Virus genome (UHGV): UHGV-0018639
Reading direction: 5' to 3' (one strand)
DNA: 64,000 nucleotides
From: a virus
Positions 4,365-59,978 of this stretch are shown in pieces. The translations under genes were made by a program, and so were the position numbers. The first letter of the stretch is position 1. Every line of letters starts with the position of its first letter. The notes under the pieces were generated by a model that had not been told where the DNA came from, ran no database searches, and was given only the letters and a program-made list of their open reading frames with translations.

Positions 4365-5584
4365 AAAATGTGTGCCCCCTTACTTCGTGAGGAGTATTGA
4401 ATAAGTTATCTTAAAGCTGGAAAACCGTAAAGTCTCTTATACCTTCAGGGTGCTTCTCTCAAAAAGGTTGCGAAAGTAGAAACAAATAAGAGAATGGCAT
4501 AAGGTGCAAACCTAAGTGCTGCTAATTGGCAATCAGCGACTAAAATAGAAAAAGGAGTATTTATAATGAGTGCAAAGAAAAAGACACATGAACAGTTTGT
4601 AAAGGATATTATAAATAAATATAATATACAAAAAGAGGATTTTACCTTTTTATCAGAATATCAAGGTTATGATAAGCCTATTATTTTTCAATGCAACAAA
4701 TGTGGAAAAATAAAGACTATTGTGGCTGGAGCTTTGCTAAGGACTTCGTCTCATAAAAAACACATATGTCCATGCTACGGTTACGCTCAAGAATGGCACG
4801 AAGAAAATCAATTTTTGCGAATTTGGATAAAAAAGCAATCTAAATATGATATAATAAAATATACTCCGGGGCTTTTAGAAATTCAACTAAAATGCAAAAA
4901 ATGTGGGACTTTTCAAAAACGCTCGGCTAAAAGTTTAGAGAAAAATGATGAGTGTTTGGGCTGTGAGAACAAATGTAATATTAAGAAACCGCAGCAAGTA
5001 TTTGAGCAAGAATTGAAAAATTTCTGTGGAGAAGAATATCAATTAGTTGGAGATTATAATGGATCTGATAACTATTGTCTATTGAGGCATACTCTTTGTG
5101 GGAAAATTTATCGAGCTAAGCCTCATTATCTTCTAACAGGAAAAGGCGGAACTTGTCCTATTTGCCAAATAAAATCAAAAGGAGAAAAAGTAATTGCTGC
5201 TTTTCTTGATAAAAAAAATATTGTTTACTATACACAATATAGATTAGATGAATTTCGGCGTGCACCATATGATTTCTTTTTACCAGACCATAATTTATTA
5301 ATTGAATTCCAAGGCACTCAGCATTTTCAGCCAGTTCCGCGTTTTGGAGGAGAATTGACTTATCAACGACAAAAAGAAGTTGATGAAAAAAAAGTAGAAA
5401 TAGCTAAAAAAGAAAATAAGCAACTACTCATTATAAATTACAATCAAATCGATGAAATAGAAACTATTTTAGCTCAACGACTATCCCTTTATGGGAGTAG
5501 CAATGATATTATTGCGAAACGATAACTATCTCTTAGGAGATAAAGATATAGTCTAATCTTATATGAAAATATAAGTCTTTTTTG
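4365..5584 (+). mobile_element. group I intron (1220 nt) interrupting terL, carrying a homing endonuclease ORF in the P8 region
   Basis: P-like ggttgcgaaag (4466-4476), Q-like ggtgcaaacc, R element tcagcgactaaaa (4534-4546), S element aagatatagtct (5540-5551), a P9 hairpin with GAAA loop, and terminal G5584. P1 is gggU(4361-4364):Gccc(4374-4377). P10 is acacg(5585-5589):ugugu(4369-4373). Splicing gives an in-frame 602-aa TerL. Confidence 0.7.
4566..5525 (+). CDS. intron-encoded homing endonuclease candidate: zinc-finger repeats plus C-terminal Vsr/DUF559-like PD-(D/E)xK motif (PYDFFLPDHNLLIEFQGTQH)
   Basis: ORF track 319 aa with its own RBS (aaaggag). It sits between the intron R and S elements. 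There are multiple CxxC pairs and a C-terminal motif resembling Vsr-like endonucleases. Confidence 0.65.
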   Translation: MSAKKKTHEQFVKDIINKYNIQKEDFTFLSEYQGYDKPIIFQCNKCGKIKTIVAGALLRTSSHKKHICPCYGYAQEWHEENQFLRIWIKKQSKYDIIKYTPGLLEIQLKCKKCGTFQKRSAKSLEKNDECLGCENKCNIKKPQQVFEQELKNFCGEEYQLVGDYNGSDNYCLLRHTLCGKIYRAKPHYLLTGKGGTCPICQIKSKGEKVIAAFLDKKNIVYYTQYRLDEFRRAPYDFFLPDHNLLIEFQGTQHFQPVPRFGGELTYQRQKEVDEKKVEIAKKENKQLLIINYNQIDEIETILAQRLSLYGSSNDIIAKR

Positions 5585-44696: not shown

Positions 44697-44883
44697 TATA
44701 GCCCATTGTATGTTCTTTATTCAGCCTTTCTTGAATATTCTTATAAACTTGCGGGAATAAACTTGCTATCACAAACTCAAAAGAAAGTTCAAGCTCATCT
44801 GTGTTTCCATTATACGTTTTTTCTACTTGCTCAATTACTCGTTTTATGTGCATGAATCGAACCTTATCTAAATTTTCGTCCAT
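44629..44883 (-). CDS. hypothetical protein
   Basis: ORF track 84 aa. Confidence 0.4.
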   Translation of the reverse strand: MDENLDKVRFMHIKRVIEQVEKTYNGNTDELELSFEFVIASLFPQVYKNIQERLNKEHTMGYIEGYKAASAAMGIEDECGTTNN

Positions 44884-45461
44884 AATTTCTCCTTTCCATA
44901 ATGTAGGGTTAAAGCGCCAAATGAATTACCTAATGCAGCAACTAAAATTTTTCGGAAGGAAATTGGTATAGAGCTTGCTGCTGAATAAAACATATTAGCA
45001 ATGCAGTGATCAAAACCACAATAAACAAATAAAAATACAGGGAGCATTATAGCAAGAAGAGACTTTGTTCGTTTGAATCCTTCAACTGCGCAATAGACAC
45101 ATACTCCGCACAAGTAGGAGCTAAAGAGTAAATTGGCATATGACATTTCTGCTTTTGAAGAAGCAACTAAATCGGCCAAAAATGGATTTACCCACCACAC
45201 CAATAAACCCAATAGTGCGGCGCCAGCGAAATTTGCAATAAGCATTATACTTAAATCAATAAGATCTGCGCCATCACCTACATAAGCAATGCGGCCAGTG
45301 TAAAGCGGAAGGCCAAGTTCTAAAATTGAGACAAGCCCAAAGCTAAATAACAATGCACCCAATATCTTATTTTGGCTAATGAGGTTGGCATATCCGCCAA
45401 CCCCAATTAGCATACCTGCAAAGAAAGCAGGAATTATATTATAGCTATCTTTTTTTATCAT
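44868..45461 (-). CDS. formate/nitrite transporter (FNT)-family-like membrane channel (short, 197 aa)
   Basis: Hydrophobic, with GFDHCIANMFY matching the conserved FNT motif (GFEHSIANMF in FocA). Confidence 0.45.
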   Translation of the reverse strand: MIKKDSYNIIPAFFAGMLIGVGGYANLISQNKILGALLFSFGLVSILELGLPLYTGRIAYVGDGADLIDLSIMLIANFAGAALLGLLVWWVNPFLADLVASSKAEMSYANLLFSSYLCGVCVYCAVEGFKRTKSLLAIMLPVFLFVYCGFDHCIANMFYSAASSIPISFRKILVAALGNSFGALTLHYGKEKLWTKI

Positions 45462-45492: not shown

Positions 45493-46002
45493 TCAAATTT
45501 TGAGTTCACAAATGTGCGCTTTTTCCAAAGTTTGGTGAACATCTATAAGGCGCTGATTACGAGAGCCACGGAATGGCAAAGTTAAATCACGCTGCTCAAG
45601 AATAAAAGGGCCATCTACCACAACATCGCAAAGTTGGAGTGTTGTTGAAATGCGGCGAGGGGGATTGAAATCCTCCCAGTCCAAGTGGTAGCCAGTATAG
45701 AGCCAAATGTCTTTATTAGGAAATTTTTCTTTGATTTCTCTTAACAACTTATAGATAGTATTGTTGTTTTGTGGCTCAAGTGGATGACCGCCAGAAAGAG
45801 TGATTCCTTTTATCCAAGGCTTTGAAAGAGCGTCAAATAGTTCTTCTTTCGCGGTGTCATCAAAAAGTTTACCTGCGCAGAAATCCCAAGTTTCAGGATT
45901 ATGACATTCTTTGCAATGGAGAGAACATCCTGAAACCCAAAGAACGACACGCACGCCAAGACCATTTGCGATGTCGCATTTTGTTATTTTGATATAATTC
46001 AT
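45493..46002 (-). CDS. nrdG: anaerobic ribonucleotide reductase activating protein (radical SAM)
   Basis: The GCSLHCKECHN CxxxCxxC motif. The start MNYIKITKCDIANG at 46002 overlaps the nrdD stop. Confidence 0.75.
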   Translation of the reverse strand: MNYIKITKCDIANGLGVRVVLWVSGCSLHCKECHNPETWDFCAGKLFDDTAKEELFDALSKPWIKGITLSGGHPLEPQNNNTIYKLLREIKEKFPNKDIWLYTGYHLDWEDFNPPRRISTTLQLCDVVVDGPFILEQRDLTLPFRGSRNQRLIDVHQTLEKAHICELKI

Positions 46003-46979
46003 TATGATTCTCCCAAATGTAAGACACGCTCTTTTATTTCTTGGGTACGGCCAAAATTCCAAAAATTAGAGCCAATATAGCCGCAAGTACGACGTGCAAC
46101 GTTCAAGGTAGAATGATCACGGTTGCCGCAATTTGGACAATACCACTCCATATTATCATCAATGAGAATTTCGCCATCGAAGCCACATTTCTGACAGTAG
46201 TCGCTCTTTGTATTAAGTTCAGCATACATTATGTTATCATAAATAAACCTATAAAGCTCTAAGACGGCAGGAATATTGTTTTGTAAATTAGGAACCTCTA
46301 CATAGCTTATTGCACCGCCCGGACTAAGTTTTTGAAACTCAGCCTCGAAAGCAAGTTTATCAAAAGCATTGATTTCTTCAAAAACAGGAACATGATAACT
46401 ATTTGTAATATAATTACGGTCATGCCCATCGAGTTTAATAAATATATCATTGCCAAATCGCTGTTTTAGGCAACGCGCAAACTTATATGTTGTACTTTCA
46501 ATAGGAGCACCATAGAGAGAATAATCAATTTTTTCAGCAGCTTTCCATTCAGCACACTTCTCATTTAAACGTGCCATTACTTCAAGAGCAAAAGGTTTCC
46601 CATCAGTCTGTGTATGGCTATGCCTTGTCATATATTTTACGCACTCATAAAGACCAGCATATCCAAGTGAAATTGTTGAATAGCCATTATGAAGCAATTT
46701 ATCAAGCCTCTCACCTTTTTCAAGACGAGCGAGTGCGCCATTTTGCCAAAGAATAGGGGCAACATCACTAAGGGTTCCCTCAAGACGCTTATGTCTAAGT
46801 TGAAGTGCTTTGTGGCATAATTCAGTACGCTCTTCAAATAGCTGCCAAAACTTATCAATATTACCGCCTGAACTAAAAGCTAAATCTGGTAAACTAATTG
46901 TAACAACACCTTGGTTAAAACGACCATAGTATTTTGGGTTATTATTTTCATCAACATAAGGAGTTAGGAAGCTCCTGCA
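46002..46979 (-). CDS. nrdD: anaerobic ribonucleoside-triphosphate reductase NrdD, exon 2 (glycyl-radical C-terminal part: CRSFL..., RRTCGYIG..GRTQEIKERV)
   Basis: ORF track 46002..46982. Exon 2 starts at 46979 (UGC AGG..) after terminal G46980. Confidence 0.8.
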   Translation of the reverse strand, partial: CRSFLTPYVDENNNPKYYGRFNQGVVTISLPDLAFSSGGNIDKFWQLFEERTELCHKALQLRHKRLEGTLSDVAPILWQNGALARLEKGERLDKLLHNGYSTISLGYAGLYECVKYMTRHSHTQTDGKPFALEVMARLNEKCAEWKAAEKIDYSLYGAPIESTTYKFARCLKQRFGNDIFIKLDGHDRNYITNSYHVPVFEEINAFDKLAFEAEFQKLSPGGAISYVEVPNLQNNIPAVLELYRFIYDNIMYAELNTKSDYCQKCGFDGEILIDDNMEWYCPNCGNRDHSTLNVARRTCGYIGSNFWNFGRTQEIKERVLHLGES

Positions 46980-47748
46980 CATATTATCCCATATCCCTAT
47001 GGGTACTGACTATATCTTCATTCCACTAAAAAGTGGAGTTGTCTTCCGCTTCGAGTGAGTGCCTATCTCTCACCCTACTCCCTTACATTCATCAGGGATA
47101 GTCGATACACTTCATTCATCATAATAAAAATTATAAGGAGTATTATTTGTCCGTTGCTGTAAAAGAAAGGTCCTGATACGATGTCTATCAATACCAGTTT
47201 TACGTTCGCATTCTCTCATTGACTTATAGTGAAAACGTTCTTTTGTCTCTTTATTTTCAGCAATTATCCAAATTCCACGCCCTTTATGCGGATTTATATA
47301 ATTGTTTTCCTGATAAGCCTTTCTAATATTTTCGCTGTGAGATACGGCCCGCAAATTAGAAAGTTCATTATGTGATTTATTTCCATCAATATGGTCTACA
47401 ACTGTACAATTATCAAGAAAAACTTCCGCCATAAGGCGATGAACGCGAGTTCGTATTCGATTGCCACCAAGACAAAGAACTACGTGTTGATACATATCAA
47501 TGCCAATATATGGACTAATTATTCTTCCCGTTTTAAAATTGATTATTTGAGCATCTTCATTTATACCAAATTGATTATTCAAACTTGGAATGGGCATAAA
47601 TTCTTTCATTATCTCACCTCCTTTTCATATTTATGATATATGATGAATTTTAGCACGGCCTCATCTGTTCTAGACCTAGCCGTTAGCCGCATTTGCGACA
47701 CCCGCGGGCGCGGTTCAAAAGATTTTATATGAGCTGCAGTTTTCACTT
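46980..47748 (-). mobile_element. group I intron (769 nt) in nrdD with an HNH homing endonuclease ORF
   Basis: On the - strand the exon 1 end ..ugu aug ggU(47749) joins ugc agg(46979..) to give CMG|CRSFL (the conserved NrdD MGCRSFL). P1 is uaugggU:Gcucaua (rc of ~47720-47726). P10 is cugca:ugcag. R-like gtatcgactatcc and S aagatatagtcag (rc of 46991-47003). P9 hairpin and terminal G46980. Confidence 0.8.
47112..47609 (-). CDS. HNH homing endonuclease (VDHIDGNKSHNELSNLRAVSHSEN)
   Basis: 165 aa with RBS aaggagg upstream. It lies inside the nrdD intron. Confidence 0.8.
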   Translation of the reverse strand: MKEFMPIPSLNNQFGINEDAQIINFKTGRIISPYIGIDMYQHVVLCLGGNRIRTRVHRLMAEVFLDNCTVVDHIDGNKSHNELSNLRAVSHSENIRKAYQENNYINPHKGRGIWIIAENKETKERFHYKSMRECERKTGIDRHRIRTFLLQQRTNNTPYNFYYDE

Positions 47749-48927
47749 ACCCATACAAGGATAACAACGACCCTTACCAGTTTTGTCTTTTTTTAATTCT
47801 AACATCATTTTTTCAGAAATAATATCAGGGACAAGACGCTTTGCTGTACATTTTGCTGCAAGTTCTGTTAAGTAAAAATACTTATCGCCCGGCTGTAAAT
47901 TATCAGGTTCAAGGACATAAAGTAACTTAGGAAATGCAGGCGTAATATAAACGCCTTTTTCATTCTTGAAACCTAAAATACGTTGTTTAATAAACTCCTC
48001 TATCAGCATTGCTAATTCATTCTTATATTCTTCTGTCTCGTTTAAATACATAAATACAGAAAGAAATGGTGCTTGACCATTTGTTGTTGTCATTGAATTG
48101 ACTTGATAGTTGAAAGTCTGAACAGCATCAACAACTTCTTTTTTTGTATCAAGTTGCGCATACTTATGCGCATTCTCATCGTCAAATCCCCAATCTTTAT
48201 ACTTCTTGAGATAAGCTTCATAAGAGCTTCTAACAAAAGGTGCAAGATGTGTAAGAGTAATAGTAGCACCACCATATGAAGAAGAAGCGACGCCAAGAAT
48301 TACTTGCGTTGCAATCGTAGAAGCTGTCAGAATTCTATGCGGCTTTTCAATTTTAACGTTATTAATTACAGTACCATTTTGAAGGACATCCTCTAAGTTA
48401 ATAAGATCGCAATTATGGAGGGTCTTCTGGCCGAAATAATCAATATCGTGGAAATGTATAATACCTTTCTCATGCGCGTCCACAATCTCAGGGGGAAGAA
48501 GAAATCGTTTAGAGATGTCTTCGCTAACAATACCGGCCATATAATCACGCTGTGTCGTTACAAGGTCGGCATTTTTATTTGAATTTTCAGCGTTCCAATA
48601 ATCACTTGTACCACTGATTAGTTCAAGTAAATCTTTGTCTGTTGTATTGCCTTCGCGCGCGAGTCTATGTTTATACCTGTATTCAACATAGCGCTCAGCC
48701 ACGTCTTTTCTTGAACTAGCCATAAGCCGCTCAACTACTAAGTCTTGAATTTCTTCAACGCTCAAATCTCTATTAAGCTTTTCTATTTGAGTAGCCACCA
48801 TTCGTGCCTTATTTTTGGCATAAGATGTTTCACGTCCATCTACTTCCAAAAAGGCTTTGAGAATGGCGACTCTAATTTTCTCTTTATCAAATGGAACCGT
48901 AGTTCCATCACGTTTTATGACGTACAA
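47749..48927 (-). CDS. nrdD: NrdD exon 1 (ATP-cone VIKRDGTTVPFDKEKI and N-terminal catalytic part; 393 codons)
   Basis: ORF track 47743..48927. The last 2 codons plus the stop of that ORF are intron-encoded. Confidence 0.8.
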
Positions 48928-50267: not shown

Positions 50268-51759
50268 TTACTCACCCCTTACATGAGTTGTTATACGGCC
50301 ATATTCATCAATATCTGTTATTTCTTCAACCAGATGGTATGGGGTTCGGGAATATTTCTTCGCCAGAAATCCATCATCCTTTCTAATGCCACATACGATT
50401 ATCTTGTTGCCACGTGAGAAAGTGCTGCGACTGATAACGTGTTTCTTCCCATCAGGCCCTCTCTCCGAAATTTGCTTATCATAATTAGCAAATGCTTCGC
50501 CAAAAATTTTGACCTGAACAACGCCATCTTTTGTCAATAACGAAACAATTTTCTTTGCCTTATCCCTATCCAATACAGTTCCGCAAATACGATGTATTCT
50601 ATAAATCGGAACCGGCGCGCTATCACTATCCTTGCCGCGCGGTTTGAAGTAAGTCTCAACATCAGGCTGCTCTTTCAGTTTGAAGAAGTTTGAAAAGCCT
50701 TGCGCACGTTCATCAACATTTTGAAGTTCATGTTCGTGGAAATAACATGAAACGCTATCCATCTCCCACTTGCTTATTGAACCAAGACAATATTTATTCC
50801 AGATATCTCGCGTTAATCGCTCATTCACGGTATCTAGCAACTCATCATGATTTTCTTTTATCCACTTGCGGACATTATCCATATATTTCTTATAAATTTT
50901 GTCCCAAGCCGTGATGTTAATTTTGAAGCCACTTTCAGTTTCATTGCTTGCGCTCAAACAGTCAAGTGAAAAATTCTTATCAAGGAAATTCAATGCGATA
51001 TTATCTATGCCATAGAATGATGTGTCTAACTTCATTTTCTTGAGATACTTTGTGAAGTTATAAACACGACGCTCAAAATCAAGATTTTCGGGAATCAACC
51101 CAAAGTTTATCAACATTGCCATATTCTGAAGAGTGATACGTTTCTTTGTGTCGCTAATCAGGCTGACATATTCGCGCATTAAATCTACTCTATCACCAAA
51201 TGCATCAAAAGCTCCGCATTTTATGAGGTTTATCATTTGTGGCTTGTTGATTTTTACTTTGGAAAGAAAATCGGAGATTGAGTTATAGGGTCGATTTGCG
51301 ATTATGGATTTAACGATGTCTTCGCCGACTTTGACGATACCGCTCATACCATAACGAATTGTTGAATTTTCAACATCAGGAGAGAAAGTAAAAGTAGATT
51401 TGTTGATATCTGGAGGAGAAACCGAAATACCGGCCATTCGCATTTTACCGATTGCTGATGCAATTTTGCCATAGTTAGTCGTTTTGACTTTTTTCTTTTT
51501 CTTTTTTACATCAATTTTTTCTTCTTCGTCTTCATCTTCGTCGTCATCTTCGGTATCATCAACAAATTCTTCAATACAGTTGTTATAACTATATTCAATA
51601 ATATCTTCTGGCGTTTCGTCATCGTTCTCATCATTTGATTCATTGCCGCCGCTATCGCTAATCAAACACGCGCAATTCCAAAAAATTGTTGGAAAACGAT
51701 ATGCAAGATTCATTTCCTGCAAAGCCACAAGCGAGTAGGAAAGAGTATGTGCTCGACAA
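50268..51759 (-). CDS. dnaE: DNA polymerase III alpha (DnaE-type) exon 2 (..CRAHTLSYSLVALQEMNLAYRFP.., acidic insert, HhH GISVSPPDINKS, OB domain)
   Basis: ORF track 50268..51728. The frame is open upstream to 51759. Exon 2 begins UUGU.. after terminal G51760. The joined GYSF|CRAHTLSYSLV matches DnaE GYGFNKSHSAAYALV. Confidence 0.8.
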
Positions 51760-52862
51760 CTTACCGCACATAGTTTCTTATGCCAGATTTACTCTGTTGC
51801 GGTCTGGACTATACCATCAATTTCATTGTTTCCAATGAAAAAGTCCTTATTATAGTCTCTGAACGTTTTTCTTATCTCAATATATTTTCTATTCATACCA
51901 AAAGGCTTATTATAAACTAGAGCGATTAGTTTTAGGATATTGAACTGATTAGCGGTTTCAACTCTATATAAGCTATCTTCAGTTTTTCTTATATGTAAAT
52001 CTTCCATAAAGAAATTTTCTACTAAGATTTTTTCAATCCATTTGATAAATTCTTCAGATGCTGATACTATATAAAATTGAGCACCGCCATAAGAAGTTTT
52101 ACTGACACACCCATCACCGTCTATTATACCACGAATAATGTAAGGCAAATATCGCTTTTCTTGCTCATACAATTGCGGCGCCGGTATAATATATGTTTTA
52201 TTCTTTATTATACCATAACGGGCAGCCTCAGCTTGAAGACCCGGCCTATTTATCAATACCCTATATCGAGTTTGCTTTCCAGCTTGAGGATAGGCCTTAT
52301 AAGTTATTCCAATTCCTTTAGCTATAAAAGCAATAACATCTTCGTCCACCATATCCAACCCTAAGCCATCTCGATCGCTCAATAGATATCCATCCGTAAG
52401 CAGTAGCCCGATTAGATATGCATCGAACGGACTTTTGATTTCAGATAACGAATAGGTATATCCTCGACGATTATCTTGCGCTTGCCGTATAATTTCTTGA
52501 TATTCATCTGGATAATACTTTTTTACCTTGTCGGTTATAGACTTCTTTGTTTTATAACCATATCGACCCATTAGCTCTGAAACCGATGCCCCATTCTTAT
52601 ATTCTTCAACTAATTTTAGTTCATCTTCTTTTGATATTTTCTGATAACCCATAGTATATCCCTCCTAAGAATAAGTAGCCCTATTCAAATAGAAATACAC
52701 TAAAATAAGAAACTTCGCTGCGGATTATCCAATTCTAAATGATTTTACTATACCCTCTCTCTTTCTGAGAGGCCGCGATATTATTGCTAATATCGTTTAG
52801 TTATTTAGACTCTAAGGAAGTCCCCGCAATTTCAAGGATTTATACTCGTCTTGTATTAGTCA
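51760..52862 (-). mobile_element. group I intron (1103 nt) in dnaE with a LAGLIDADG homing endonuclease ORF
   Basis: - strand: an 8-bp P1 uacucguU(52870-52863):Gacgagua (rc of 52848-52841). P10 is uugu:acaa. P element aaauugcgggga (rc of 52821-52832). Q element aauccgcagc (rc of ~52716-52725). S gguauaguccag (rc of 51803-51814). P9 hairpin and terminal G51760. Confidence 0.8.
51789..52652 (-). CDS. LAGLIDADG homing endonuclease (two motifs LIGLLLTDGYL and IRGIIDGDGCV) with N-terminal HTH
   Basis: 287 aa with RBS aggaggg. Its C-terminal end overlaps the intron S/P9 region. Confidence 0.8.
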   Translation of the reverse strand: MGYQKISKEDELKLVEEYKNGASVSELMGRYGYKTKKSITDKVKKYYPDEYQEIIRQAQDNRRGYTYSLSEIKSPFDAYLIGLLLTDGYLLSDRDGLGLDMVDEDVIAFIAKGIGITYKAYPQAGKQTRYRVLINRPGLQAEAARYGIIKNKTYIIPAPQLYEQEKRYLPYIIRGIIDGDGCVSKTSYGGAQFYIVSASEEFIKWIEKILVENFFMEDLHIRKTEDSLYRVETANQFNILKLIALVYNKPFGMNRKYIEIRKTFRDYNKDFFIGNNEIDGIVQTATE

Positions 52863-55360
52863 AACGAGTACCCGCGCTGAACTCTGAACAAAACGTCCCA
52901 TACATAATGGGCAAAAGTCATATCACAACCTTTTTCTTTTGCATTTTCAAAATAGGCTTTTTCACATTCATCAAAGAGTTTGCCTTGTTTTTTTGCAATT
53001 GCCTTTCGACATTTATCTGCAAAAGTCAGATTATTCCCTCCGAGTCTTTCTTCCTGCAGAAGCTGCATCATTCCTTCTTGACTCTCACATATGCCACTCG
53101 TTATCGCATTATGTCCAATTAACCATTTTATATCTTCATTTTTTAATCCATATTGAATCATTTCGTCTCGCCATTCATTGATATTCAAACGATATCTTGC
53201 CCACATATCAAGTGGCTGCTCAGCTCCTTTTTCAGGAGCCATTAGACGAATTACTGAATTCAAAACAGCTAATTCACTAACGTTTTTAGGATGAGTTAGC
53301 GCTATGCCAGAAATGCCGCTCGGTTGTTCCATTTGAAACAAACTGGATATCTTATGATTCCAAACCATTTCCCACATTTCTGGTGCAGTTCGTTCAAGAT
53401 TATATATGCCAATTACACTTTCATAAGTTTCACGTAATGTTGGCTTTCGCTCTATATAACCATAATCACATAACAAATCTAGCTCATTGTGTATTTTATC
53501 AAGAGCTTCAATTGACAACATATCAATTTTGATCAGCGATGCGTCCTCCGCATCATGGAGTTCAAAAGCCGTAATGACCGTGCCATCAGGCGCGCGTGTT
53601 AGCGCTGTCGATTCCGTAAAAGGCTCGTCAACGAAGATCACTCCACCGGCGTGGACGCCAATGCCACAAATTAACCCCTCAATTTTTGAAGCAACTTCCC
53701 AAACATCACTGTAGGTTTTCATTGCTTCAACAAATTGCTTTACTGGCTTAAAACCTTTATCTTCATCACCCTCTATACATTGGGTAAGTGAGCGAAGTTG
53801 CCCGCGATCAGCTGGAATCAGAGATGCCAAATAGGATGCTACATCAACATCAATTCCCAAGCCACGGCAGGCCGTTAGAATTGCTGATTTAGATTTTTCT
53901 GTTTTGAATGTAATAACATTCGCAACTCTGTCTTCCCCATAAAACTCACGGAATTTCTGTAAAACTTGTGCACGACGTCCGCCTTCAATATCAGTATCAA
54001 CGTCCAATACCGACGCACGTTCGGGATTAAGAAAACGCCAATGAAATACTTGAGTTTCTTCTTGAATTGGATTTATCTGTGTTATATCTAATGCATATAA
54101 CAAAATAAATCCTGCACCTGAACCACGCCCCGGCCCAACAAGAGAACCAGCTTCCCAACATAAATCAATATTTTTCTGCAGATTCAGAAAATAAGTCGAC
54201 CAATGCGTGTGATTTGTTATCGACGAACGCCATGTATCATCAAGACAAATATTTATCTCATCATACGCTCGTTTGTTCTGCAAACCCGGCTTCCGTTGGA
54301 TGCCGTCAATAATCGCCCAAACCAGTTTTCTATCACCCCAATAATCAGAGTTATAGAAAGTTTCTAAATAAGGAATTTCATGTTTGAGAATATCATATGC
54401 TGCCTCATCTTCAGGAAATGTTTTCCAATAAAGTTCTGGAATTTTTAAGGGGCGCATTAGTGAAAAATCTTCACACATTTCACCTATCTTGAGAATATTA
54501 TAATATGCAACTTGAAGTTGTTCTTCGGTGAAATAATCGAAATACTCTTCTATTTCTTTCGTATTCATAAGATACGTAGTAGCATAGAAATCATCTACTT
54601 CTCGTTCACCATTCTGTGCATTGAGATATGCCTTATGAATCGCGCGATCTTCTTTTTTGAGATAATGGCTATCAGTTGTTATAACATAAGAAATGTCGTA
54701 TTTAGCTGATAATTCAAGCAACTTTTTATTTACATAAATTTGTTCTTTGTTATGACTTGGTTGCATTTCAAAAAAGAAATTACCGTGCCCAAAAAGTTTA
54801 TCCAAAGATAAAATCCAATTTTCAATTTTGCTATTGAGCGAGCTATCATTTCGTGCTTTGAGAAGCTGAGTAGGAAGACAGCCACCGAGGCAAGCTGTCA
54901 TTCCCACAATGTGTCCCGGATTAGCCCCTACGATTTCAAACAAATCACTATAATAAGTTGGCATACGACGCATACCACGCGCCATATAACTACGTAATCC
55001 TGCACGAGTAGATAATTCTCTAATTTGTTTATGCCCAATCGCGTCTTTTGCTAACAAAATAAAGTGATAATATTTATCTTGTCCTGTAATAAAATTCGAT
55101 GCATTTAACCCATTTCGACAAAGATAAATTTCATTTCCTTGAATAAATTTGAAATCAGGGTATTTTTCTTTTACTTTTTTATAATACTTTTCTGCCTTAA
55201 TCGCGCCAGATATTGACTCATGGTCTGTAAGAGCGACGACTTTATGACCCAACTCGATGGCGCGATCAATTAGGTCTGAGACTTTTATTATACAGTCTCG
55301 AAGCCTTTCATTAGAATAATCCGAGTGGTTATGTAATGACCCCGGATACGGAATATTCAA
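52863..55360 (-). CDS. dnaE: DNA polymerase III alpha (DnaE-type) exon 1 (PHP domain LHNHSDYS.., GRGSGAGFILLYALDITQINP, ..RGYSF)
   Basis: ORF track 52856..55360. The exon ends at the second U of UUU (52863); the D codon and stop of the ORF track are intron-encoded. Confidence 0.8.
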
Positions 55361-58426: not shown

Positions 58427-59978
58427 TCTTATTCAACCTTTCTATCAATTCACTTATTTCGTTCGATTCACTATCATCCCAATTATAGACTTCAATATCA
58501 TTTACGACAAAATCATCAAGCGGTTCCAGCAAAGAATTTGTGATAAACAAATCTTTCTTTTTCAAACGCCCCAAATCAACATATGACCAAATACGTGTTT
58601 GCGTCCATCGGCCACTTCTTAACTTATATACGTCCGCAACTTGGTTTGGCGTTCCATACATACTAATGAAATTGTCTTTTAGAATTAGTAGCTCATCATT
58701 TGTTGGACGCGACATAATCAAACCATTATCTGCTTTATTGATAATCGCACGGCTGCCCGCGAGAGAAGATTCGTTTCTTATATCTTTATTATCATCAGCT
58801 TTCGCATTTACTTGTGTCGAAGTAAAAACCGCAACATTCAATTCAACAGCTAAATTTTTTAGTGCGGTTGTCATAAATAAAAGTAATTCATCATTTCGAA
58901 GTGCTGTCCCTTTGAATTCATTTACCAACGAAGGACTTATAAAGATATAGTCATAAAACACAACATCGACTTCGTTTATAATACACTGGTCGCGCACAAC
59001 TGCATTTATGAGTTCAATCGTCGGCTCAGGCATACGTATGACAATGAAATTCTTTTCGTATTGTTTCATTACTTCAAGAGCTTGCTTGATAATGCGCCGT
59101 TCTGCCTCATCAAAGTTTGCATATCGGAACCTGTCTTCGTTAATATCGGTAAGATAGGCTAAAACCATTTTCTGAATTTCTTTTTTCTGCTGCTCAGTTA
59201 TGATGAACAAAATTCTTTGCGTATTTCCGCACTGAATCCATTTGCCATTTTCTGTGTTATAACGAACAGGATAGGCAAGATAACAAGCATCCATTACTGC
59301 AGTACGCGTCTTGCCAAGGCCGCTACCCGCAGAACGGACTGTCAAAGTCCCTTTTAACGCGCCATTCATTATTTCATTACAAATCGCCCCCTGTATCGGA
59401 TAGCCAATTTCTTCTGTTGAGCCAAAACTTTCGACCAGTTCTTCAATACCATCAGCGAGACTTTCAATTTCAACTTCTTCACCAGCCGCATATTCACTTT
59501 CCAAATGAATAAGTTGTTTTTTCAACCCCTTAATAATATCTTGCGGCGTCAGTTCCTTGAACCGCTCATTTATCTCAGTCGCGCGTGGAGCCGTTAAATC
59601 TTTTTCATAGAATGATTTGACACTATACCCTTGCTTTTCAAGGTCAGTCATTAGATTGAACTTTTTGAGCTGATTATAATAAAACCCAAAGTTCTCTACG
59701 TCGGCCAGCTCAATCAAGTCCTGAACTCGTTCGAGTCCATTCGCCTGTTCAAACAAAGACTTTGACATTGGATCTTGCCCAAAAACACCTTCAATATCTA
59801 TTGGCCTTATCTTAGGAGCACCGCCTGTGTATAACATATAAATGGCTTTGAAGACACGCCTATCAAACTTATCCTCAAAGTCGAGTGGCGTCAGTGAATA
59901 TTTGTCCGTTTCATTCAACAGTTTGGGCTGAAGTATCAAACCGCCAAGAACTTGATTTATAGAAGTGCGGTCAGTCAA
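58419..59978 (-). CDS. dnaB: DnaB-like replicative helicase (Walker A SAGSGLGKT)
   Basis: 519 aa with an N-terminal DnaB-like domain and a RecA-fold ATPase with Walker A/B. Confidence 0.65.
   Translation of the reverse strand: MTDRTSINQVLGGLILQPKLLNETDKYSLTPLDFEDKFDRRVFKAIYMLYTGGAPKIRPIDIEGVFGQDPMSKSLFEQANGLERVQDLIELADVENFGFYYNQLKKFNLMTDLEKQGYSVKSFYEKDLTAPRATEINERFKELTPQDIIKGLKKQLIHLESEYAAGEEVEIESLADGIEELVESFGSTEEIGYPIQGAICNEIMNGALKGTLTVRSAGSGLGKTRTAVMDACYLAYPVRYNTENGKWIQCGNTQRILFIITEQQKKEIQKMVLAYLTDINEDRFRYANFDEAERRIIKQALEVMKQYEKNFIVIRMPEPTIELINAVVRDQCIINEVDVVFYDYIFISPSLVNEFKGTALRNDELLLFMTTALKNLAVELNVAVFTSTQVNAKADDNKDIRNESSLAGSRAIINKADNGLIMSRPTNDELLILKDNFISMYGTPNQVADVYKLRSGRWTQTRIWSYVDLGRLKKKDLFITNSLLEPLDDFVVNDIEVYNWDDSESNEISELIERLNKID

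Follow-up and report, generated by a model that had tools for sequence, protein, structure and literature searches.

Group I introns with homing endonucleases in the ribonucleotide reductase (RNR) genes of phages are textbook knowledge, the standard cases being T4 td, nrdB and nrdD, Twort nrdE, and SPbeta bnrdE/F. Among the endonucleases encoded by phage introns, I-HmuI, I-HmuII, I-BasI and I-TwoI act as nickases. Split nrdD genes have been catalogued, that of Lactococcus phage 949 among them (Dwivedi et al. 2013, PMC3653736), and in the gut 'Jug' jumbo phages the splicing of an nrdD intron is backed by metatranscriptome reads (PMC12880540). Here, we analyzed the nrdD gene in UHGV virus genome UHGV-0018639, of which a stretch of 64,000 nucleotides (nt) was at hand; this whole stretch is referred to as the window. 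The gene is interrupted at positions 46980..47748 of the minus strand by 769 nt, which with high confidence constitute a mobile self-splicing group I intron of subgroup IA2, located between the codons for Gly393 and Cys394 and thus directly before the codon of the active-site cysteine.

Both halves of nrdD are readily recognized on either side of the insert (all features lie on the minus strand unless stated otherwise): Exon 1 (47749..48927; 393 codons) encodes the ATP-cone and the N-terminal half of NrdD and ends with ...TGT ATG GGT (C-M-G, Gly393 being the last codon), and exon 2 (46002..46979) starts with TGC AGG AGC (C-R-S), its first codon, Cys394, being the equivalent of Cys290 in T4. 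The corresponding open reading frames (ORFs) match the Pfam ATP-cone and positions 1–262 of the NRDD profile (ORF 48927..47743) as well as positions 264–562 of the NRDD profile and Gly_radical (ORF 46982..46002), and exon 2 can also be aligned to T4 NrdD (PDB 1h78). Neither exon contains stops or frameshifts, and nrdG is the next gene after the two halves. Joining 47749 to 46979 is in frame and produces an NrdD of 718 amino acids (...GRCYPCMG|CRSFLTPY...), in which the Pfam profile continues seamlessly across the join (262|264) and which can be aligned over its entire length to NrdD proteins of known structure, T4 1h78 among them, without a gap at the junction. Over its full length this product is 100% identical to an uninterrupted 718-amino acid protein from public assemblies (P0001), and about 20 further uninterrupted NrdD proteins share 94–99% identity with it. 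The CMG|CRSFL junction put forward in the original prediction is thereby corroborated, and the close homologues of the protein proved to be single uninterrupted chains, identical to the predicted product, and not the natural alpha/beta split that had been named there as an alternative.

The borders of the insert follow from a comparison with three syntenic, intron-less loci of near-identical phage contigs (L002, L003 and L004). The blastn alignments break exactly at 47749|46979 while the subject coordinates remain contiguous (5179 to 5180), and therefore the insert comprises exactly 46980..47748, the very coordinates that had been proposed. The flanks in L002, CCTTGTATGGGT|TGCAGGAGCTTCC, are identical to the exon flanks of the window. 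The predicted ligated exons read ...CCUUGUAUGGGU|UGCAGGAGC... (AUG GGU|UGC AGG), and the sequence spanning the predicted spliced junction is TATGGGTTGCAGGAG.

Within these borders, the conserved core P3–P9 including the P3/P7 pseudoknot could be placed completely. At the 5' splice site, P1 (47728..47755) consists of seven base pairs between UAUGGGU (47755..47749) and the guide sequence GCUCAUA (47734..47728) and places a U•G pair at the cleavage position. Immediately before the guide, the loop of P1 contains one strand of P10 (CUGCA, 47739..47735; the 5' strand), whose partner UGCAG (46975..46979) is formed by the first five nucleotides of exon 2. An in-frame UGA (47743..47745) is located two codons past the 5' splice site (GGU|AAG UGA) and, by analogy to known phage introns, would halt the ribosomes that translate exon 1 ahead of the ribozyme. 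The 5' strand of P3 (UCUUUUG, 47716..47722) pairs with CGGAAGA (47042..47048) near the other end of the insert. It is followed by two hairpins, PA (47713..47702) and PB (47699..47686), which together occupy 47686..47713 between P3 and J3/4-P4 and which the T4 nrdD intron, known as sunY, does not have. P4 (CGGCU/GGCCG) encloses P5 (47656..47682); an earlier assignment of P4 as CCGC/GCGG around P5 was dropped as it found no support in related introns, and the stretch concerned turned out to fold into the two separate hairpins that precede the actual P4-P5. The 5' strands of P6 (47654..47652) and P6a (AUUCAUCAUA, 47648..47639; together 47639..47654) engage in long-range pairing with the 3' strands of P6a (UAUGAUGAAU, 47123..47114) and P6 (47111..47109; together 47109..47123), thereby closing a loop that accommodates an ORF, the last codons and first stop-codon base of which build the 3' strand of P6a. 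The 5' strand of P7 (GACUA, 47103..47099) is succeeded by P7.1 (47098..47079) and P7.2 (47075..47053), and the presence of these two hairpins between P7 and the 3' strand of P3 assigns the intron to subgroup IA2. P8 (47041..47019) belongs to a block (47008..47041) shared with J8/7 and the 3' strand of P7, the latter two forming the S element GAAGAUAUAGUC (47019..47008) with the pattern typical of phage IA2 introns. The P9 hairpin CCCAUA-GGGA-UAUGGG with its GNRA loop (46988..47003) and the terminal (omega) G at 46980, which is fixed by the boundary of the insertion, complete the structure. All of the elements that had initially been listed for this insert, namely a 7-bp P1, P10 as cugca:ugcag, S, P9 and the terminal G, were hence found in place.

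To what extent this fold is maintained by selection can be read from a family of related introns. An exact search for the core pattern returned seven viral contigs, and a 16-mer from J3/4-P4 extended this number to at least 120 viral contigs in IMG/VR. Both flanking intron motifs are present in at least 104 loci (those fetched earlier included), from which at least 98 homologous introns were extracted from viral metagenomes. Among the matches listed, all of them sit at ATGGGT (Met-Gly)|TG[TC] (Cys) of nrdD; the host NrdD proteins of these matches are nonetheless very diverse, with exon 2 opening as CRSFL.., CRTANG.., CRTLIG.. or CRAxLSP.. Among the introns extracted from the listed matches, 29 lack an ORF and measure 243–354 nt; the remainder range from 520 to 1111 nt. 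A protein-level search of viral contigs with the ORF of the window intron revealed no relative; it was the DNA pattern of the intron core that succeeded instead.

For the covariation analysis, 24 ORF-less relatives and the window intron with its ORF trimmed were aligned (25 introns, 448 columns). The structure under test was written from the window sequence, with P7 and P10 treated as pseudoknots, and it was controlled by sliding the pairing partners by 1–3 columns and by 500 shuffles. Standard pairs occupy 94.3% of the cells, compared to 34–43% with the partners slid; changes on both sides occur in 38 of the 70 pairs as opposed to 12–23, and the covariation score amounts to 0.464 versus 0.06–0.12. 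None of the 500 shuffles attained any of the observed values. At the level of individual helices, five of the seven P3 pairs change on both sides with 97% of the cells being paired, P4 is paired in 99.6% with two covarying pairs, P6/P6a covaries in all relatives, all four pairs of P7.1 covary, as do P7.2 and both extra hairpins, and P9 is paired in 100% with four of its six pairs covarying. The terminal G is invariant, and the window does not deviate from the family consensus at any of the invariant positions of the core. The pairings between exon and intron are likewise maintained: The U•G of P1 is kept in 24 of the 25 introns, and the pair formed by exon position −7 and the guide sequence covaries (CG in ten introns, GC in four, UA in four, AU in three, and UG in two). 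P10 is paired in 85.5% across the relatives and covaries with the synonymous third (wobble) base of the cysteine codon, as illustrated by CUGCA:UGCAG in the window and CUACA:UGUAG in L014 and L020. Independently of the structure derived from the window, RNAalifold predicted P1, P3, the two hairpins that follow P3, P4, P5, P6, P6a, P7.1, P7.2 and P9 from 74 distinct, ORF-trimmed sequences.

Megablast and blastn searches of the intron against 50,697 GenBank phages yielded only one match of 33 nt, to T4 and its close relatives, and no DNA similarity to deposited phages other than T4-like ones. This exact match (47104..47072) falls inside the sunY intron and covers P7, P7.1 and the start of P7.2. 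From P7 to P9, 104 of 127 aligned bases are identical in the two introns (~82%), P7.1 and P7.2 correspond to their namesakes in sunY, and the 5' element AGCUCAURUAAAAUCU including the guide GCUCAU is nearly identical. Judged by its sequence, the window ribozyme is thus homologous to that of T4 sunY and belongs to the same lineage, and is not merely analogous to it. Since P7 never varies in the alignment, it is this homology on which its assignment rests.

The ORF in the loop of P6a (47112..47609) encodes 165 amino acids and is preceded by its own Shine–Dalgarno sequence, GGAGG (47617..47621), with a spacer of 7 nt to the ATG. Its product matches Pfam HNH_3 (2e-8), the structure of I-HmuI (PDB 1u3e, E=2e-9), and PHROG 59 (1.5e-24). 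Residues 6–163 align with residues 5–170 of I-HmuI, that is over the full length including the HNH motif and the C-terminal DNA-binding region, and the metal and base residues D74/H75/N87/N96 of I-HmuI are conserved as D72/H73/N85/N94. A relative from the same protein cluster additionally matches the I-HmuI NUMOD-like domain PF22083. The ORF thus specifies a complete HNH homing endonuclease of the I-HmuI type, which, judged from its membership in this family, probably acts as a nickase; the cleavage site and homing would follow the same analogy. The replacement of the T4 enzyme by an HNH endonuclease, as initially claimed, holds, given that the T4 intron is annotated with the GIY-YIG enzyme I-TevII. 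A tblastn search with the HNH protein against the GenBank phages recovered nothing above 36% identity, and 119 homologues were identified in metagenomes. Five of these (50–100% identity) were looked up, and each lies between N- and C-terminal halves of nrdD, at the same site as judged by sequence comparison. In other family members, the P6a loop harbors a GIY-YIG endonuclease (Pfam), which is the commonest ORF type according to a crude motif count; one member has an 88-amino acid ORF without a Pfam match, and many have no ORF at all. As one and the same backbone is combined with an HNH ORF, a GIY-YIG ORF or none, introns and ORFs have separate histories, which is usual for phage introns.

Alleles with and without the intron coexist in near-identical phages: The NrdD proteins of the intron-less alleles are 98–100% identical, and their target site is intact. 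Conversely, the intron-plus allele recurs in several independent assemblies, the identical HNH protein has been recorded from about two dozen contigs of several datasets, and the short ENA contigs L012 and L013 contain the same insert with both exon flanks. This presence/absence polymorphism, together with the occupation of the same site in diverged nrdD genes, is the pattern expected of a mobile (homing) intron. We further observed that some intron-less alleles (L003 and L004) carry synonymous third-position differences to the window in four successive codons directly after the insertion site (46968..46979; TGT AGA AGT TTT instead of TGC AGG AGC TTC; the L003 variant reads TGTAGAAGTTTT). These differences could change recognition by the endonuclease or the pairing of P10.

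Taken by itself, the sequence also offers some support for readings other than that of an active intron, and several points weigh against the latter. At the gathering threshold, an Rfam scan of the whole window produced no match; in E-value mode, the 3' part of the insert matches RF00028 (Intron_gpI) with 20.9 bits (E=0.008), which is below the gathering score of 50 bits and the 101 bits attained by T4 sunY as a control. The ORF-less relative L011 matches the whole model (1–253) and nonetheless reaches only 24.7 bits (E=2e-4), again below gathering, and a scan of five loci with ORF-less relatives at the gathering threshold returned tRNAs only. Moreover, P8 in the window requires a 2x1 internal loop, P7 contributes no covariation support of its own, and the two hairpins between P3 and P4 lie outside the canonical core, with no description of such a module found in the literature. 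Splicing itself is deduced from the sequence. One might conclude from the low Rfam score and the imperfect P8 that the intron has decayed and lost its ability to splice, leaving nrdD a pseudogene in this phage. We consider this very unlikely: Every invariant core position agrees with the consensus, all helices as well as the endonuclease ORF are intact, the undamaged exons specify a protein that is 100% identical to that of the intron-less allele, and the same intron-plus allele is found in several independent assemblies. The gathering score is a detection threshold and not a structural criterion, and the ORF together with the two extra hairpins probably explains the low scores, considering that even members without an ORF reach only about 25 bits.

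A different interpretation dispenses with RNA splicing altogether and regards nrdD as genuinely split by a free-standing HNH gene, with two polypeptides that reassemble, as is the case for mobE in nrdA of Aeromonas phage Aeh1. Split but functional phage RNR genes do exist (Dwivedi et al. 2013, PMC3653736), and the last three bases of the insert, AUG, are in frame with exon 2 and open an ORF of 326 amino acids, so that exon 2 could in principle be translated on its own; a 326-amino acid product is indeed listed in public gene calls (P0249). This terminal AUG is not conserved, however, as relatives carry ACG, AUG or GUG before the cysteine codon, and a split at this point would part the glycine from the catalytic cysteine within the finger loop. 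In addition, the 270 nt of non-coding sequence that flank the ORF show strong selection for a group I structure, which extends to the pairs between exon and intron, and the ORF-less inserts of 243–354 nt at the same site find no explanation if only an endonuclease gene had been inserted. A split gene is accordingly extremely improbable. An intein comes to mind because the homologue P0084 has one at exactly this point, but the in-frame stop after two codons and the ribosome-binding site of the ORF make protein splicing impossible. A chimeric join during assembly is contradicted by the identical HNH protein in about two dozen contigs, by L012 and L013, which share the insert and both flanks, and by homologous inserts in more than 100 viral contigs. 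Intein and artefact together deserve next to no credence. We therefore retain the reading of the insert as a mobile self-splicing group I intron.

The course of events can then be outlined from the anatomy of the insert as follows: nrdD would be transcribed together with the intron, and ribosomes translating exon 1 would halt at the UGA two codons into it. After folding of the RNA, P1 (UAUGGGU:GCUCAUA) would offer its U•G at the 5' splice site, which a free guanosine bound in P7 could cut. P10 would then align exon 2, the terminal G 46980 would take the place of the free guanosine in P7, and ligation of the exons to ...AUG GGU UGC AGG... would restore the intact 718-amino acid NrdD. The endonuclease of 165 amino acids would be translated separately from the P6a loop and, in analogy to I-HmuI, I-BasI and I-TwoI, would introduce a nick close to ATGGGT|TGCAGG when a co-infecting relative supplies an nrdD allele without the intron, upon which recombinational repair could copy the intron into the nicked allele and complete homing.

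The position of the intron differs from that of its T4 relative. The T4 intron splits codon 180 in phase 1 (AYE|YEV; exon 1 ends at position 2406 of L001), and the window site aligns to T4 Gly289|Cys290 in phase 0, which is 110 codons downstream. The proposed parallel to T4 sunY thus stands for the ribozyme, as evidenced by the 33-nt identity, the 104 of 127 bases and the GCUCAU guide, and fails for the insertion site, for which a comparison after alignment of the NrdD proteins had been suggested, and for the placement of the ORF in P6a instead of 3' of P9. Cys290 of T4 is the thiyl-radical cysteine, positioned at the finger-loop tip beside the glycyl radical, a role reportedly described by Logan et al. 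1999, Science 283:1499. With regard to how the site may have shifted, the guide GCUCAU is able to pair with both AUGAGU| (T4) and AUGGGU| (window), which would fit reverse splicing from one site to the other, after which HNH or GIY-YIG endonucleases would have been acquired independently in P6a. The fit of one guide to both targets is what suggests this origin, which we offer as speculation. It is also conceivable, though rather doubtful, that the window intron represents a large unannotated branch of the sunY lineage, with more than 100 copies in IMG/VR that escape Rfam at the gathering score, which colonised a second site in nrdD and whose hairpins may constitute an undescribed peripheral module.

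The same codon has also been reached by other elements. In P0084, an NrdD homologue of 70% identity, an intein is positioned exactly at the window site (...CYPCMG|CVDG...SHN|CRSFL...), and in the homologue P0119 an intein is found at the other active-site cysteine (HN|C...GN|CDLLNLED). The P0084 intein shares the insertion point with the window intron and employs the catalytic cysteine as its +1 nucleophile; it differs in its LAGLIDADG-type endonuclease and its removal at the protein level, and it is unrelated to the window insert. Mobile elements that converge on active-site codons are a known pattern. For the SPbeta RNR genes, a passage in PMC3653736 refers to such an 'intron–intein coincidence' (Derbyshire & Belfort 1998).

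Several observations concern the intron family and its surroundings. In comparison to the relatives L005–L020, the window intron has the look of a mosaic, combining a 5' leader and HNH ORF similar to those of the L014/L017 type with a P3–P5 and P7–P9 core similar to that of the L007/L011 type, which has a GIY-YIG ORF or none. This pattern suggests recombination between intron lineages. The HNH ORF is broken in L017 and the GIY-YIG ORF in L007. L017 (1480–1830), like L018 and L019, also possesses a second ORF-less, IA2-like intron in nrdD at VASSQYG|G, and nrdD of the L017 type has an in-frame TAG at a conserved NrdD glutamine (VASS*YG), which suggests that these phages are TAG-recoded; with such recoding, the HNH gene called in L017-type relatives would fail to translate in code 11. 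Both broken ORFs were initially taken for pseudogenes; for the HNH ORF of L017 we set this aside, as the TAG at the conserved glutamine makes recoding more likely. GenBank entry MT836495.1, where nrdD is matched in two pieces, was suspected of carrying the same intron, but here MG|C is continuous and the gene is interrupted at another position.

Elsewhere in the window, the gene for DNA polymerase III alpha (DnaE-type) is interrupted as well (51758..52877, minus strand; ~1.1 kb extra compared to L002/L003). The extra sequence contains an ORF for a 287-amino acid LAGLIDADG protein (52652..51789; Pfam 7e-10) and a P7'-like element, GATGGTATAGTC (51818..51807), and scores weakly with RF00028 (15 bits); a second group I intron, this one encoding a LAGLIDADG endonuclease, is the probable explanation. 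On the plus strand, the window contains two near-matches to the S element, AAAGATATAGTC, at 5542..5553 and 58941..58952 with one mismatch each, which could mark further introns; in total, four S-element matches were counted (two per strand) where 0.47 are expected. Downstream of nrdD-nrdG follows a nucleotide-supply gene cluster that is unusual in a phage (window 44295..46062; L002 6157–9933). It includes a formate/nitrite transporter family protein (44868..45461), to which relatives add a nucleoside 2-deoxyribosyltransferase, a xanthine/uracil permease and a dUTPase. Since many class III RNRs use formate as their reductant, the transporter may serve NrdD. The nearest cultured relatives judged by NrdD are Enterocloster phages (62% identity); the related contigs have a size of ~125–135 kb and originate from gut-type metagenomes.

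For annotation, the consequences are immediate: In public gene calls, this allele appears as three separate products (the N-terminal part of NrdD, an HNH protein and a 326-amino acid C-terminal fragment), whereas it is, on our reading, one intact nrdD gene with a mobile intron. Because Rfam at its gathering score misses the window intron and all five ORF-less members tested, the same mis-annotation is probably present in many genomes of gut and environmental phages. Beyond that, one backbone at one site with an HNH ORF, a GIY-YIG ORF or none, a T4 relative at another site, and an intein at the same site make up a rich natural data set, which bears on how endonucleases and introns associate and on the reasons for the convergence of mobile elements at codons of active sites. 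The known workings of group I introns are unchanged by these results.

In relation to the described systems, T4 sunY is the closest: It shares with the window intron the nrdD host gene, the IA2 architecture without P2 and with P7.1 and P7.2, and the guide GCUCAU. It differs in its phase 1 site at codon 180, in its ORF 3' of P9, which encodes the GIY-YIG enzyme I-TevII and not an HNH protein, in the lack of the extra hairpins between P3 and P4, and in its RF00028 score of 101 as against 20.9 bits. T4 td (I-TevI) and RB3 nrdB (I-TevIII) resemble the window intron in being phage IA2 introns in genes of nucleotide metabolism. In td, the ORF is likewise looped out from P6a, and its end lies within the stem. 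Both nevertheless reside in other host genes; a P2 is present in td, I-TevI belongs to the GIY-YIG family, and I-TevIII, an HNH enzyme according to a passage in PMC1865063, is dimeric, introduces double-strand breaks and is not I-HmuI-like. The introns of SPO1, SP82, Bastille and Twort, which encode I-HmuI, I-HmuII, I-BasI and I-TwoI in phages of Gram-positive hosts, share the endonuclease family and architecture with its D-H...N...N residues; in contrast to the window intron, they sit in DNA polymerase or nrdE genes, and their enzymes have low identity to that of the window. Against this background, the novelty of the present intron is modest and comprises the site at the codon of the catalytic cysteine, the clear homology to sunY even though both the site and the placement of the ORF differ, the size of the family together with its non-detection by Rfam at the gathering score, and the two extra hairpins.

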